This document shows positions 50,748 to 55,102 of a stretch of DNA of 64,000 bases, in pieces; position 1 is the stretch's first letter; each line of letters begins with the position of its first letter. The DNA is taken from assembly GCA_964492125.1 (NCBI GenBank), contig CAZBJE010000003.1:27788-91787 (forward strand), written 5' to 3'. The notes below the pieces were generated by a model. That model was given only the letters and a program-made list of their open reading frames with translations, was not told the origin of the DNA and searched no databases. Both the position numbers and the translations under genes were made by a program. The DNA is from an uncultured Pseudobdellovibrionaceae bacterium (GTDB lineage Bacteria > Bdellovibrionota > FAC87 > UBA2466).

Positions 50748-51725
50748 TTGAGCTCGAAACTCCATATATTGCCCCTTCTCGCGGTGTTCGCTGTAAGTAG
50801 TTACGGGGCAATTCTCCAGCCCCGCAACTGTCTGCACAGGCTATTGGCCAGCGCAACCAACTTTCGTTCCCTCCTGCTTCGACTCGATATTCAATTGGAA
50901 GAGAAACCAGCGTGGAAAAACGGCTACAATCTCATTTGGATTGGAAGTCAGAAGCAAGGCGGGTTCTATCGTCGCGTTGTAGTAAAGCAAATCCGTCGCA
51001 CGGATCCGGATACTCCTCAGGACCCCGACAGTGAATACTCCGCGTTGCAAAAGCAAAACATTCCATCCGATTTCCTCAAAATGGGGCGCCATAGGGCGAT
51101 TGTCAGCCAATTCCATTCTGCAGTGGACGATGGCCCCGAGCCAGCTCCTCATCTTGACGCATTTTTAACGGATGCTGTTCTGAGTGCAGAGTGGGCCGGA
51201 GAATTGACGGAGAGTCTTTTTCAGGAAGTCGAAAAACTCCATCTCCATTCCCTGGCGCACAATGACCTTCACAGTGGGAACATTTTAGTGGCGATTCGAG
51301 GTGGGCATCCCGTTGCCCGGCTAGTTGATTTTGGACGCGCAGAGGCCCTCAACCCGAACTTGGAAGCCGGGGACGTGGACCTTTTGCGGCAAGCTATTGA
51401 GTCTGTCTACTCAAAACACGATATTTCACCAGAAATGAGGATGGTTTTGAAGGTTCCGAACCATTTCGCGTCGGTTCGGGACCTCAGGCAGGCTCTCGAG
51501 GAATCCAAGAACATTTCCACGTTTCCGCAAGTCTTCTCATCGCGAATAGCCACTTCGCTGCAAAAGGGTAAAAGTAGAAGTTTTGATATTGCCCTGGATA
51601 TATTTGGGCCCGCAATCGACTCTTCAATCCGCGAAGCGGTTTTTAGTCACCTTTCAGTGGAAGTGGTAGCTGGACTGAAAAAAGAATATCAAGAGTATAA
51701 GAACTACGCCCAGCCCTTATTCTAG
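50748..51725 (+). CDS. Protein-kinase-like (PKL / APH / Kdo-kinase-like) phosphotransferase with a hydrophobic N-terminal signal or anchor.
   Basis: Catalytic-loop-like HNDLHSGNILV and DFG-like LVDFGRAE. The listed start is TTG; true start uncertain. Confidence 0.5.
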   Translation: MSSKLHILPLLAVFAVSSYGAILQPRNCLHRLLASATNFRSLLLRLDIQLEEKPAWKNGYNLIWIGSQKQGGFYRRVVVKQIRRTDPDTPQDPDSEYSALQKQNIPSDFLKMGRHRAIVSQFHSAVDDGPEPAPHLDAFLTDAVLSAEWAGELTESLFQEVEKLHLHSLAHNDLHSGNILVAIRGGHPVARLVDFGRAEALNPNLEAGDVDLLRQAIESVYSKHDISPEMRMVLKVPNHFASVRDLRQALEESKNISTFPQVFSSRIATSLQKGKSRSFDIALDIFGPAIDSSIREAVFSHLSVEVVAGLKKEYQEYKNYAQPLF

Positions 51726-51761
51726 CGAATTACTTTCCAGTCCTTTCGGCTGCTTGGTACC

Positions 51762-52982
51762 ATGCAATGCATGAGTTCGCTAAAAATGTGGCTTCTGTCT
51801 CTTGCTTTATTCAGTATAGAAAACGTCTACGCGTCGACGCTCTGGAAAATGCCCACTCCCACCATGAGCTCCGATCCGATTCGAGTCTTCATTCAAAAGG
51901 AATGGGGTGGCGGGAATTTTCCGAATGCGGAAATGTGCCGCATTGAAGATGGGGGCAAAGGAAAGGCGCCGAACTACCCTTGCAGAGTCGTTGAACTCAT
52001 TCCGGGAATCAAGAAACGTCCTCTGAATCGCGCAGCAACCGCCCCGAAGAAATCGTACGCTTACTACTTTCCCCCCAACCGGGATGTCGAAGTCACTGTG
52101 GAAACCCCTATGGAGCTCACGAAGACGATCTCTATATGGGGCGGCCGCCAAGTTCGAATCCGTGGAACAGGGAATGGCCATATTAACTTGAAAAGGGATC
52201 GGGGAATTCCTGCCCCTTGTGATCAGAGTAACGAACAGTGCAAAGACGCTTTGAGAGCTTACAAGCCGCCCGTCAATGCCGTCTTCGTGATCGAATCCCC
52301 TTTTGCCGCGATTTGGATGGAGAATATCAAGATTTTCGCAAACGGAAATTTTACGGATGCGGTCGCACTCCGCCAGAATCCCGCGACAAATCCAAGACCT
52401 GAAGGCGTAGATGTCTTTATACGCAAGTTTGGAGCGTACGATATTGGGGGCGCCTATGTGGGGCTACACGGTGACATTGTCCAGCTTCAATCGGGCACGT
52501 ATCGAAACATTTTCTTTTTCGATATATATGGACTCGCAGTGTACCAAGGTTTCTTTTTGCCCTATCGACCCAAGGGCAGTCCCTATCTGTGCGAAACGGC
52601 TTCCGAACTATTACCGGAGCCAAACCCTTTGAAGCTCAAAGCGGACGTCGAGACGTGCTTAGCGCCGATTAACGTCATAGGGAAAGCCTGGTTCCAGAAC
52701 GTTGTGCTCCGGCCAACTTCCGCAAGCATTTGCAGCCACTGTGTTAAGCCTTACATTGGGTTGTATACGCGGGACGCCGTAAAAAACGGCAAGACTTCCC
52801 CGTTCTACCCCTCGTTCCTAAATGACGTTACTTTCTATCGGGACCCTCGCGCTGAGGTCTGGTGGTATGTAGTGCCCCACCCCGGATGGCGAACCAAAGA
52901 GGGGGTTATCGACATGTCTAAGGAAACCAATCGAGTTATCTCGGGACTACTGAGGATAGAAACTGAGGCCCAGGCGGAGTAG
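51762..52982 (+). CDS. Hypothetical secreted protein (406 aa).
   Basis: Signal peptide MQCMSSLKMWLLSLALFSIENVYA. No family recognised. Confidence 0.45.
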   Translation: MQCMSSLKMWLLSLALFSIENVYASTLWKMPTPTMSSDPIRVFIQKEWGGGNFPNAEMCRIEDGGKGKAPNYPCRVVELIPGIKKRPLNRAATAPKKSYAYYFPPNRDVEVTVETPMELTKTISIWGGRQVRIRGTGNGHINLKRDRGIPAPCDQSNEQCKDALRAYKPPVNAVFVIESPFAAIWMENIKIFANGNFTDAVALRQNPATNPRPEGVDVFIRKFGAYDIGGAYVGLHGDIVQLQSGTYRNIFFFDIYGLAVYQGFFLPYRPKGSPYLCETASELLPEPNPLKLKADVETCLAPINVIGKAWFQNVVLRPTSASICSHCVKPYIGLYTRDAVKNGKTSPFYPSFLNDVTFYRDPRAEVWWYVVPHPGWRTKEGVIDMSKETNRVISGLLRIETEAQAE

Positions 52983-53057
52983 TAAATTTGCAGGAATCCC
53001 CGCCGAAAGTCACGGTCTCGCCACCCCATCTTAGGGGTTGATCAGCTCCCTTCGTTT

Positions 53058-54251
53058 GTGCGATGGTCCGGGGCCTTTATGGCCAGGTTTCTTTCAAATT
53101 TCGCTGTATTTATTCTGTTTTTCGGCTTTGGCCAAAGCATCCCGTCTTTTGGCGCGAAGCCGAGCGGCTATTGTATCAATCGTTTGTCTGCCGGGACGAT
53201 GGAAGCGGTTCCCAATCTGAACGGTGGTGTGCATTGGGTTCCGGCGGATTCTTGGACGAAATCGCGCATCGGCATTGGCCTAAAGGCGTTGGCCGCTGCC
53301 AACGTTCCGCTGCTGACGACCTATCTCCGTAACGCAATCGACCCCCAGGCTGACACGCTTCTGAAACAGGCCCTCGAAAAAGAAGACGTTTCGATGGCAC
53401 GACTATCCGGAGGAATTCAATACCAGTATAGAAGCTTAGGTGCCGCCGCCTTGGATCATGGATTGGTGTTTCAAAATCTCTTGCTGCCAAACGGCACAAT
53501 GGCCACCAAGCAGCAGGTTTTAGATGTCTTAAGACTGACGAAGAGAAGATTTGGAGTGCCTAAATCGGCCGATCTTTTGAAGAATAAAGTTCCCGGATTT
53601 GAGGCCATCTCAGCCGAGGTGTTGGGAGTGCCGATAGCAGCCCCGTTTTTCTGGGCTCTGGTACGTACAAGCGGGTACACGTTGAGCAGTGCTTTGAAAG
53701 CGATTGGGGGCAATGAGCTCAGTCGTCAGCAGGCTCTCGAATTAGGCATTTCTCTTTTTGAGGCGGGGGCTAATTTTCGGGTACATTACCCTATCTCCAC
53801 CCGTCAAAACCACAAAGTTATGGAATGTGCGAGTGGGCTGGGTTTCACCGCGAACAGGAATGATTTGGTCTCTGCGGCCAATCGGCACTTTGGGAGCTGG
53901 AAAGATTATTTGCACGCCGTCCGCAGCGCGCGATTAAATTCAGTCGAAATCGGCATGTTTGCCGAGCGTAGGCGGGTAGAAAGGCTTCCCCCAACTTCAC
54001 TACATGATGAGGGAGTGGTGAGTTCTGAACAGGTCTGGCATCGCCTGGACGAAGGCCTTCAACAATTTGAGGAGCGCAAACAAAGGGCGGCGAGTCTTTT
54101 GATCGACCATATAGTAGCCAGCCCCGACGTGCTTACGACCTCGGAGATTCGGGAATTCTTGAACGCCAAATCGGAGGTTCCACTCTCTGATAGCGACGCT
54201 GAGGAAGTCCTAGAGCAGCTTCGTGGGATGCTTTCGGTAAGTCTTCACTAA
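53058..54251 (+). CDS. Hypothetical secreted or membrane-anchored protein (397 aa).
   Basis: Hydrophobic N-terminus FLSNFAVFILFFGFG. No family recognised. Confidence 0.45.
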   Translation: MRWSGAFMARFLSNFAVFILFFGFGQSIPSFGAKPSGYCINRLSAGTMEAVPNLNGGVHWVPADSWTKSRIGIGLKALAAANVPLLTTYLRNAIDPQADTLLKQALEKEDVSMARLSGGIQYQYRSLGAAALDHGLVFQNLLLPNGTMATKQQVLDVLRLTKRRFGVPKSADLLKNKVPGFEAISAEVLGVPIAAPFFWALVRTSGYTLSSALKAIGGNELSRQQALELGISLFEAGANFRVHYPISTRQNHKVMECASGLGFTANRNDLVSAANRHFGSWKDYLHAVRSARLNSVEIGMFAERRRVERLPPTSLHDEGVVSSEQVWHRLDEGLQQFEERKQRAASLLIDHIVASPDVLTTSEIREFLNAKSEVPLSDSDAEEVLEQLRGMLSVSLH

Positions 54252-54271
54252 AGCTAATTCAGCCTGAGTGT

Positions 54272-55102
54272 CTATTCCAAAAAGAATAGAGCCAAGATCG
54301 ATCGCGCGTCTTCATGCGACTCTATCGGAGCATACAGATCTAGCTGTTCGGAAAAGGCCTTCATTACAGTCGATTCAAGGTCTGATCTAGCGTCCTCATC
54401 TCCGCTCTTCAATTGGGCGAGGGACAGTTGATACGCTCTTGCATGAATCAGGAATTGTGGCAACGAAAGCACTTCCGCCAAAACCCTATTCGCACGAACA
54501 AATTCGTCGAAACGCGCTTGATCTCGTGGGCTCATGGACTGGTAGCTTGGGATTAATGAATTTTCAACGATCTTCGAGTTAGAGTCAGCCCACGTTTCAA
54601 TACTCAATTGCCCCTTGGCCATACAGGTTAAAAAATACACGTGAGCAAATGCGTGCGTAATAAAGCCGGAGCCGAGTTCGGTAAGTCGTTCGTAGGTCAC
54701 GCTACCATGCGTAGACTGTTCACGGGCGACAGGGCGAAATAATCGAGGTATGTCTAACCTTCGGTGTGATGCATTCATTGCGTTCGCGAAATCCCCCAAC
54801 ATTTCCGGATGAATGGAAAACCAATCGGAGTACTGCTCGACCATTTGTGGCAATGGGACCGATTCGATTGAGTCCAAAACTGCTTGGGCGCCCAGAATCA
54901 CACCCCCAAATTGCATTTGGGGTAGAGTCGTAATCCCTTGAACAGTAGCGATAAAGATAGACTTCCTGGCTTGCACCAGTCGCTGAGCACATTCCCCGTC
55001 CGCGGCAGGGACTTGCGCATGCAACTGCCCTATTCCGTGCAATTGAACGATCGCTAGAGCTACTAAAAAAGCGTTTTTTTGGATTCCCCGAGGCATTCTC
55101 AT
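54272..55102 (-). CDS. Hypothetical secreted protein (276 aa), co-directional and immediately downstream of the AAA+ gene.
   Basis: Signal peptide MRMPRGIQKNAFLVALAIVQLHG. 9-nt gap to the upstream gene. Confidence 0.45.
   Translation of the reverse strand: MRMPRGIQKNAFLVALAIVQLHGIGQLHAQVPAADGECAQRLVQARKSIFIATVQGITTLPQMQFGGVILGAQAVLDSIESVPLPQMVEQYSDWFSIHPEMLGDFANAMNASHRRLDIPRLFRPVAREQSTHGSVTYERLTELGSGFITHAFAHVYFLTCMAKGQLSIETWADSNSKIVENSLIPSYQSMSPRDQARFDEFVRANRVLAEVLSLPQFLIHARAYQLSLAQLKSGDEDARSDLESTVMKAFSEQLDLYAPIESHEDARSILALFFLE

Follow-up and report, generated by a model that had tools for sequence, protein, structure and literature searches.

Small genomic islets and accessory islands that encode secreted proteins are recognized by deviations in GC content, GC at third codon positions (GC3), codon bias, and k-mer usage, by patchy or orphan genes, by a position at a breakpoint of synteny, and by exported products. 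We analyzed a 64,000-nucleotide (nt) stretch of DNA, the window, from an uncultured Pseudobdellovibrionaceae bacterium (contig CAZBJE010000003.1), in which a block of four consecutive genes, P1 to P4 (positions 50748 to 55102), has these same attributes. The block differs from described islands in having no integrase, tRNA, insertion sequence (IS), or recognizable attachment (att) site, in its size of only 4.4 kb, and in an N-terminal motif that its products share with a native neighbor, which suggests exchange within a lineage. Among described protein families, the closest to the products are the Bud32/RIO minimal kinases (P1), right-handed parallel beta-helix proteins of the pectate-lyase superfamily, such as GH28, GH87, PL6, and phage tailspike depolymerases (P2), and the HNH_repeat proteins (P3; PF18780, "homing endonuclease associated repeat"), and the giant AAA+ protein encoded next to the block falls in the clade of EccA, SpoVK, and CbbX.

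We propose, with moderate confidence, that positions ~50,556 to 55,105 form a species-specific accessory islet located at a synteny breakpoint directly upstream of a conserved ATP-grasp gene, with a base and oligonucleotide composition unlike that of the surrounding chromosome. The islet would most likely have been acquired or exchanged by recombination, its source probably being a related lower-GC lineage rather than a plasmid or phage. Its products would be a Sec-exported kinase (P1), a beta-helix protein (P2), an HNH_repeat-like helical protein (P3), and an orphan alpha-type protein (P4). Rather than serving in housekeeping, the four would most likely be exchangeable factors of the envelope or the cell exterior, used toward other cells or surfaces.

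Composition and synteny of the block

The block was first remarked on in an earlier note, made from the sequence alone, which described it by eye as lower in GC than its flanks. This estimate was right: GC, GC3, and codon usage were computed along the window, and they are far from uniform. GC content in the 4,355-bp block is 0.509, against 0.561 ± 0.011 in 102 other segments of equal size (minimum, 0.538). Its dinucleotide delta* is 70, against 37 ± 12 in the same segments (maximum, 66.6), and its tetranucleotide distance is 19.9, against 12.1 ± 1.3 (maximum, 15.3), about 6 standard deviations out. By all three measures, no other part of the window deviates as strongly as the block. GC at synonymous third positions (GC3s) is 0.519 for P1, 0.554 for P2, and 0.540 for P3, and composition departs furthest in P4 (GC3s, 0.479; codon bias z, +4.8). 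These values (mean, 0.523) compare with 0.612 ± 0.035, with per-gene z values of -1.7 to -3.8, and no other four-gene run of the 38 is as low (Mann-Whitney P = 0.001). Resampling of synonymous codons on each protein's own amino acids gave z values of -1.9 to -4.7 for GC3s and +2.1 to +4.8 for codon bias. The GC dip extends over ~50.4 to 55.2 kb, and the genes on either side of it, encoding the AAA+ giant (GC3s, 0.618) and the ATP-grasp ligase (0.600), are normal.

The left edge of this low-GC block coincides with a break in synteny. An exact-sequence cluster look-up of housekeeping proteins identified the nearest available relative on a 128.5-kb Joint Genome Institute (JGI) contig, Ga0620605_0000334, whose Maf, LeuRS, and PckA proteins are at least 90% identical to those of the window. 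The 21.6-kb stretch around PckA of this contig (L056) is collinear with window positions 30,779 to 50,555 (~19.8 kb; 74 to 78% nucleotide identity by blastn; proteins 60 to 94% identical), through the genes for LeuRS, an adhesin of 1878 amino acids (aa), PckA, a DUF1295 protein, ribosomal protein S18, a periplasmic binding protein, a histidine kinase, a trypsin-like protein, and the ATP-grasp ligase. The 1.75 kb of L056 past the breakpoint (Table 1) shows similarity to nothing in the window, including P1 to P4, the giant, the GT4 gene beyond it, and the repeated element described below. This DNA has a GC content of 0.574 and carries a 492-aa gene without a Pfam family (GC3, 0.645) and a partial gene with a precomputed DUF6882 match. 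These results support an islet that is accessory or acquired: the block is a compositional outlier, and L056 turns ~190 nt before it into unrelated sequence with normal GC. The note had named synteny of the block in all relatives as a finding that would refute its reading; L056 carries unrelated normal-GC genes at this position. Its proposal of a horizontally acquired island survives in part: a compositionally distinct accessory islet lies at a synteny break, and neither hallmarks of mobility nor a mechanism of acquisition was found.

Relatives of the individual genes are scattered. A P2 homologue 59% identical to the window protein (in L053) has no P1 upstream and a different gene downstream, and the other P2 homologues lie in unrelated gene contexts. 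The P3 relatives in L050 and L051 have unrelated neighbors, as does the closest homologue of the giant, P0013 (L046 to L049), whose neighborhood holds no relative of P1, P3, or P4. Metagenome scans with the P3 and P2 alignments added nothing new, and scans of viral contigs found no relatives of the P2 or P3 families.

Two copies of a 72-nt palindrome-bearing element, which together with a shared cysteine motif (see below) is a new observation, flank a larger region. The copies have the same orientation, are identical at 22 of 24 core positions and, by eye, at about three-quarters of the 72 positions, and are the only two in the window, against 0 expected. Copy 1 precedes the likely start of the ATP-grasp gene by 65 nt and copy 2 that of the giant by 38 nt, so that both minus-strand transcription units are preceded by the element. 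In the other direction, P1 and the GT4 gene begin ~60 nt from the respective copy; the palindrome overlaps an ATG. An RNA explanation was considered and discarded: Rfam gave no match, and the fold z values (-1.5 and -1.2) indicate no unusual stability. For these reasons the element is better read as a DNA site, probably an operator or promoter used in common. L056 lacks it upstream of the ATP-grasp orthologue, and the element hence belongs to the nonsyntenic DNA. The note had the block bounded by this element, which is correct on the left; on the right, the second copy lies beyond the AAA+ gene, so that the 8.75 kb between the copies holds the giant in addition to P1 to P4. The copies might have arisen as junction duplicates when DNA was inserted, or they might simply be a regulatory site present twice. 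No recognizable att site was found, the sole direct repeat being this pair (50619-50690 and 59373-59445), which encloses the normal-GC giant as well as the block. The 5' part of the element (50657-50689 and 59412-59445, minus strand) may code for a conserved small peptide, M…SFK[ST]LTQ: of the four differences across that stretch of 7 codons, three are synonymous. Two copies alone do not decide the matter, and past this stretch the frames diverge.

Table 1. Features of the block and its immediate surroundings (positions are those of the window; aa, amino acids; signal peptides are predicted)
Feature	Coordinates	Strand	Length	Description
ATP-grasp ligase (PRK07206/DdaF-like)	49097-50554	-		NF005543, 9e-94, above cutoff
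Synteny breakpoint with L056	50555..50556			Immediately upstream of the ATP-grasp coding sequence; ~190 nt to the left of the block; from blastn
Element copy 1	50619-50690	-	~72 nt	3' end CATAAG-N4-ATTATG; between ATP-grasp (-) and P1 (+)
P1	50748-51725	+	325 aa	TTG start; signal peptide MSSKLHILPLLAVFAVSSYG, then A, NCLHRL, minimal protein-kinase-like domain (HNDLHSGN, DFG), ~100-aa C-terminal extension
P2	51762-52982	+	406 aa	Signal peptide (…NVYA, next residue S), then all-beta domain modeled as a right-handed parallel beta-helix
P3	53058-54251	+	390 aa from ATG 53079	Reading frame opens at GTG 53058, likelier start ATG 53079; signal peptide, KPSGYCINRL, helical repeat units, C-terminal helical domain
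P4	54272-55102	-	276 aa	Signal peptide, then DGECAQRL; orphan
AAA+ giant	55112-59377	-	1407 aa (start at ATG 59335) or 1421 aa (start at 59377)	Normal GC
Element copy 2	59373-59445	-		Palindrome CATAAG-N4-CTTATG; between AAA+ giant (-) and GT4 gene (+)

The four products of the block

All four open reading frames (ORFs) were found at exactly the coordinates at which the note had listed them. P1 and P2 are separated by 37 nt and P2 and P3 by ~96 nt, and P3 and P4 converge across a gap of 20 nt. P4 starts 9 nt past the stop codon of the AAA+ giant and, given this spacing, is probably cotranscribed with it. The signal-peptide-like N-termini that had been reported for the four products were present in every case: hydropathy and manual inspection of the n, h, and c regions showed a start that is short and charged, then a stretch of 10 to 19 hydrophobic residues, with small amino acids where cleavage could plausibly occur. 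P1 to P4 are thus predicted from their sequences to be exported, probably via Sec with cleavable N-terminal signal peptides. In P1 the signal peptide needs the TTG start at 50748, and the NCBI call for this protein (P0001, 313 aa) begins 12 codons downstream of that TTG. The combination of a signal peptide with no Pfam family is common in the window, being found in at least nine further genes outside the block.

P1 had been called kinase-like, and it gave weak but coherent matches to the kinase fold, with the catalytic loop and the DFG motif intact. In Pfam, Pkinase matched at 4.4e-6 with 26.7 bits, below its cutoff of 31.7, and APH at 4.6e-5 with 23.7 bits, barely above its cutoff of 23.2; Kdo and ABC1 gave further weak matches, and the NCBIfam matches, of the Bud32/RIO type, were all far below their cutoffs. 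The kinase matches cover residues ~130 to 225, that is, only the region of the catalytic loop and DFG. The best match among PDB sequences was to Bud32 (4ww5_A; E = 0.0027), aligned over the catalytic loop, DFG, and the next helix, and the HNDLHSGN and VDFG motifs of P1 align to Pkinase, APH, and Kdo as well as to this Bud32 sequence. Candidates for the N-lobe elements, namely, the Gly-rich loop, the beta3 Lys, and the alphaC Glu (GSQKQGG, VVVK, and SEYSALQ), were picked out by eye, and no profile aligns before residue ~128. On these motifs, P1 is a predicted minimal Bud32/RIO-like kinase. It shares with these kinases a short core, the H-x-D-x4-N and DFG motifs, and the lack of a recognizable activation segment or APE motif. 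It differs from them in that the profiles match only the core of the C-lobe, with scores below or at the family cutoffs, and in having a Sec-type signal peptide and the C-terminal extension. OspG and NleH are minimal effector kinases that P1 resembles by analogy only. A word-indexed search of 5.8 billion proteins returned no homologue outside P1's own cluster. A possible HNH_repeat unit in the C-terminus of P1, suggested by the string "NHFASVRDLRQAL", was not significant.

P2 belongs to a small, unannotated sequence family. It gave no significant match in Pfam, NCBIfam, PHROGs, PADLOC, or PDB sequences, and its nine homologues (36 to 99% identity) share conserved cysteines and motifs such as HGDIVQLQSG.YRN; several of them have, by eye, an apparent lipoprotein-type cysteine past the signal sequence. 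The AlphaFold2 (AF2) model of P2 is an all-beta solenoid with a mean predicted local distance difference test (pLDDT) score of 77 and a predicted template modeling (pTM) score of 0.78. The top Foldseek matches to this model in PDB and BFVD are nearly all beta-helix glycanases, lyases, and tailspikes, none of them significant (best E, 0.039 in PDB and 0.021 in BFVD; template modeling score at most 0.31 on query length). We read the modeled beta-helix as an assignment to a fold class only. P2 differs from the described beta-helix proteins in that it has no match to the Pfam Beta_helix or Pectate_lyase families and in that catalytic residues cannot be assigned. Most likely, P2 would be a surface factor that binds or cleaves glycans.

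Three further observations concern this protein. Many actinobacterial relatives of the AAA+ modules of the giant (e.g., P0019, P0021, and P0025) carry right-handed beta-helix domains (PF13229/PF05048) in the same chain, while in others the fusion partner is a trypsin-like or aspartic protease; in the window, P2 and the trypsin-like protein (48231-49049) are separate neighbors. A link between P2 and the beta-helix domains of the Streptomyces SpoVK-type AAA+ fusions was tried and dropped, there being no sequence relationship. Finally, codons 233 to 260 of P2 (52459-52540) hold five clustered nonsynonymous differences from a second sample of the same region (L052; see below), with T/A in the window and G/C in L052. 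These changes shift the window protein off the family consensus, including at the nearly invariant G260, and could represent decay, local hypermutation, or an assembly error.

P3, too, gave no significant match in Pfam, NCBIfam, PHROGs, PADLOC, or PDB sequences. An exhaustive HMMER search with this protein found two full-length relatives, P0133 (3e-41) and P0134 (1e-31), and one shorter relative, followed by multirepeat HNH_repeat (PF18780) proteins: P0135 (2e-8), P0137 (5e-5), and P0138 (1e-3). The HNH_repeat unit is ~50 to 55 aa long and ends in (H/R)FGSW…A…AGL. One unit in P3, at …RHFGSWKDYLHAV, is canonical and fits this pattern, and a repeat-unit hidden Markov model (HMM) built from PF18780 proteins matches P3 residues 264 to 294 (397-aa numbering) with an E value of 8e-7. 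The relationship is distant, since the Pfam model itself does not report P3. Whereas P3 shares the unit motif (…HFGSW…A…) with these proteins and phmmer finds the multirepeat members, it has a single canonical unit, a signal peptide, and no nuclease domain. The only paper that we found on the HNH_repeat family merely lists it (PMC8078820). The AF2 model of P3 is all alpha (pLDDT, 72; pTM, 0.48), and the fold search gave no significant PDB match.

P4 had no match in Pfam, NCBIfam, PHROGs, PADLOC, PDB, plasmids, or phages, the libraries to which its searches were limited. PHROGs and PADLOC scans returned only generic kinase and AAA matches, and BLASTP, phmmer, and hhalign detected no homology among P1, P3, and P4 or with the neighbors of their relatives. 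None of the four proteins securely passes a curated family cutoff. The earlier statement that no family could be assigned to them was too strong for two: P2 is in a nine-member family and has a beta-helix model, and P3 has HNH_repeat proteins among its relatives.

The AAA+ giant, the ATP-grasp ligase, and a shared cysteine motif

The giant has a hydrophobic N-terminus, two intact AAA modules of the SpoVK/CbbX/EccA type, and a C-terminal cysteine cluster; a third, degenerate module was made out by eye, as was an apparent insertion of ~250 aa between Walker A and Walker B of module 1. A search of a species-representative genome collection with this protein returned only SpoVK-like proteins of 24 to 39% identity, mostly from metagenome-assembled genomes of Firmicutes, and none from the source species or its close relatives. 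Its closest homologue, P0013, is ~46% identical over the AAA core and has retained a signal-peptide-like start with NDSC as well as the last 50 aa, which in the two proteins hold the cysteine cluster CAICGRADC. The P0013 gene (L046, 10001-13744) adjoins a resolvase and three consecutive tyrosine recombinases (L046, 14145-17905), so this copy lies in mobile-element-rich DNA. An exported AAA+ ATPase would be surprising.

The ATP-grasp ligase is 74% identical to its L056 orthologue (L056, 18368-19747). Its N-terminal extension consists of a hydrophobic segment followed by TCAGRI, and the orthologue likewise has a hydrophobic N-terminus followed by SCDVRV; such a signal-peptide-like extension is odd for an ATP-dependent ligase, and it is conserved in L056. 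The long ORF start at 50689 is probably wrong, since homology with L056 ends at 50555 and the relative has stops upstream.

A cysteine motif recurs near the N-termini of several of these proteins. The window proteins, ~20,000 residues in all, contain C..RL three times (~1.35 expected anywhere), and each occurrence is just past a predicted signal peptide, at position 28 of P1, 39 of P3 (of 397), and 38 of P4. The broader pattern C.[HNQG]R[LI] occurs four times in all window proteins, in these three and the ATP-grasp ligase, each time 11 to 17 residues past the N-terminal hydrophobic core; in the ligase, the cysteine is aa 98 of the ORF, 12 residues past the hydrophobic segment. A cysteine 8 to 20 residues past the hydrophobic core is found in five of the six genes at 49.1 to 59.4 kb, compared to 1 of the 17 other signal-like proteins of the window (Fisher P = 0.001). 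The codons of the motif differ and the 5' ends of the genes have no DNA similarity, indicating that the motif is maintained at the protein level and does not stem from recent duplication. Related forms are SCDVRV in the ATP-grasp protein of L056, KP.GWWC.HL in the relatives of P3, NDCVWL in the giant, and NDSCILEEL in P0013. An early cysteine, 5 to 10 residues past a signal-like N-terminus, is also seen in relatives or their neighbors (L050, 1820-3821; L046, 7314-8756; L049, 4335-5162; L051, 198-806; L053, 1601-1882). No conserved partner cysteine was found; P1 has a single cysteine and the second cysteine of P3 is not conserved, which makes an intramolecular disulfide unlikely.

Origin and role of the block

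Several observations weigh against acquisition or exchange of an islet of exported factors. Pfam and NCBIfam scans of the neighbors revealed no integrase, transposase, or IS beside the block, no tRNA was found in the window, and DNA and protein searches detected no plasmid or phage relative. Exported orphan genes elsewhere in the window are low as well (GC3s, 0.53 to 0.57 at 5311-5973, 6040-7113, 7234-7797, and 62628-63923), so part of the dip may be a gene-class effect. L056 covers 1.75 kb past the breakpoint and does not show synteny resuming after 55.1 kb; the normal-GC giant and the genes past it may also belong to the nonsyntenic region, or a rearrangement may account for the break. The post-signal cysteine motif is common to the native ATP-grasp gene, which weighs against a distant donor; the donor, if any, was probably a related lineage. 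The signal peptide of P1 hinges on a TTG start, all four signal peptides were judged by eye and hydropathy only, and a kinase is awkward in a compartment free of ATP. The missing mobility genes, tRNA, and plasmid or phage relatives, the GC3s of the other no-family exported genes, and the N-terminal motif that P1, P3, and P4 have in common with the native ATP-grasp protein would fit native, fast-evolving, poorly expressed orphans without any horizontal transfer, in which GC3 is lower because lineage-specific exported genes are under relaxed selection or subject to weak biased gene conversion, and the break is ordinary rearrangement or rapid turnover. We regard this as unlikely, given that the block lies beyond every other segment in delta* and tetranucleotide distance and not only in GC, that its mean GC3s is below that of the other orphan genes, and that the corresponding DNA of the relative has a normal composition. 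Moreover, composition shifts within a few hundred bases on each side: on the left this happens near the synteny breakpoint, and on the right between P4 and the giant, which has the same orientation and lies 9 nt away. Low GC, the orphan status of P1 and P4, and the non-ATG start of P1 (and possibly P3) might even suggest that the ORFs are spurious and the block noncoding or decaying, but this is hardly credible: the homologues of P2 and P3 keep conserved motifs, P1 retains the catalytic motifs of kinases, four long ORFs tile the region with gaps of 20 to 96 nt, and all frames are kept in a second sample. In the latter, a Logan contig (L052) 99.3% identical to window positions 51,353 to 54,494 and identical in gene order, 20 of the 22 differences are coding, 10 of these are synonymous, and P3 is invariant.

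The giant and the cysteine motif invite functional alternatives as well. Since the giant belongs to the SpoVK/CbbX/EccA clade and lies beside orphan proteins, one of them probably in its operon, the block could be an effector or toxin secretion island of a type VII-like or otherwise AAA+-chaperoned kind, as the earlier note had implied by pointing to EccA. We consider this very improbable, and the link to the type VII secretion system (T7SS) was not supported. The giant stays below the cutoffs of all three models (SpoVK, 399.7 versus 422.95; CbbX, 384.9 versus 459.25; EccA [TIGR03922], 313 versus 466.65). The N-terminal domain of EccA is of the TPR kind, and no TPR family is among the Pfam matches of the giant at E ≤ 0.1. 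No EccB-E, EccC-type FtsK ATPase, EssC, MycP, or WXG100 family was found among the ~39 window proteins scanned, and the candidate cargo carries Sec-type signal peptides, which T7SS substrates are not known to have. SpoVK, the sole characterized non-T7SS member that we found in the literature, is described as a cytosolic chaperone of MurG (PMC11513918). The giant shares AAA and AAA_lid_6 modules with EccA, SpoVK, and CbbX, but it combines two intact AAA modules in one 1,400-aa chain with a hydrophobic N-terminus and a cysteine cluster, and it has no T7SS, Rubisco, or sporulation context; from these scores, domains, and signals, the T7SS analogy is a clade-level resemblance only. A different connection would make the block, the giant, and the ATP-grasp gene one functional module, coregulated through the 72-nt element and marked by the cysteine motif for a shared sorting, tethering, or hand-over step. 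The confinement of C.[HNQG]R[LI] to four window proteins, the enrichment of early cysteines at 49.1 to 59.4 kb, the differing codons that exclude recent duplication, the retention of the motif in the ATP-grasp orthologue, the P3 relatives, and the giant's homologue and its neighbors, the unlikelihood of an intramolecular disulfide, the common element upstream of both minus-strand units, and the position of P4 just past the giant all favor such a module. Yet these genes occur together in no relative, the motif is short and degenerate outside this genome, no machinery for such a step is known, the ATP-grasp gene of L056 lacks the element, and the giant and the ATP-grasp gene do not share the block's composition; the single module is quite doubtful. 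It is conceivable, if improbable, that a hydrophobic N-terminus with a Cys-helix motif 5 to 10 residues on defines an undescribed export or sorting class in this uncultured lineage, that the block is its palindrome-coregulated cargo cassette, and that the class takes in ATP-dependent enzymes: the kinase, the ATP-grasp ligase, and the giant SpoVK-type AAA+ ATPases. Such enzymes would have a plausible role outside the producer only when delivery takes them into another cell. If the cysteine did mark a genuine step of sorting or tethering, it would suggest a route, so far undescribed, by which enzymes are passed to other cells.

We thus prefer an accessory islet of probable Sec-exported factors. 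As a small accessory set of orphan exported proteins in a poorly sampled bacterium, it is a common kind of feature, and its value lies mostly in annotation: the beta-helix family of P2, the secreted HNH_repeat-related family of P3, and the signal-peptide-bearing minimal kinase P1. The cysteine motif shared by ATP-using enzymes is incidental to the islet and is a lead worth following.

Two observations concern other parts of the window. The exported no-family genes at 5311-7797 and 62628-63923 may be further accessory loci of a like kind; the product of 7234-7797 has a signal peptide followed by STCSERV. The ribosomal protein S18 gene (44627-44977, plus strand), named from the Pfam annotation of its L056 orthologue, is overlapped by a longer antisense ORF (44552-44935), and its product has an N-terminal extension rich in Arg, Gly, and Asp that derives from imperfect tandem repeats (44679-44754).

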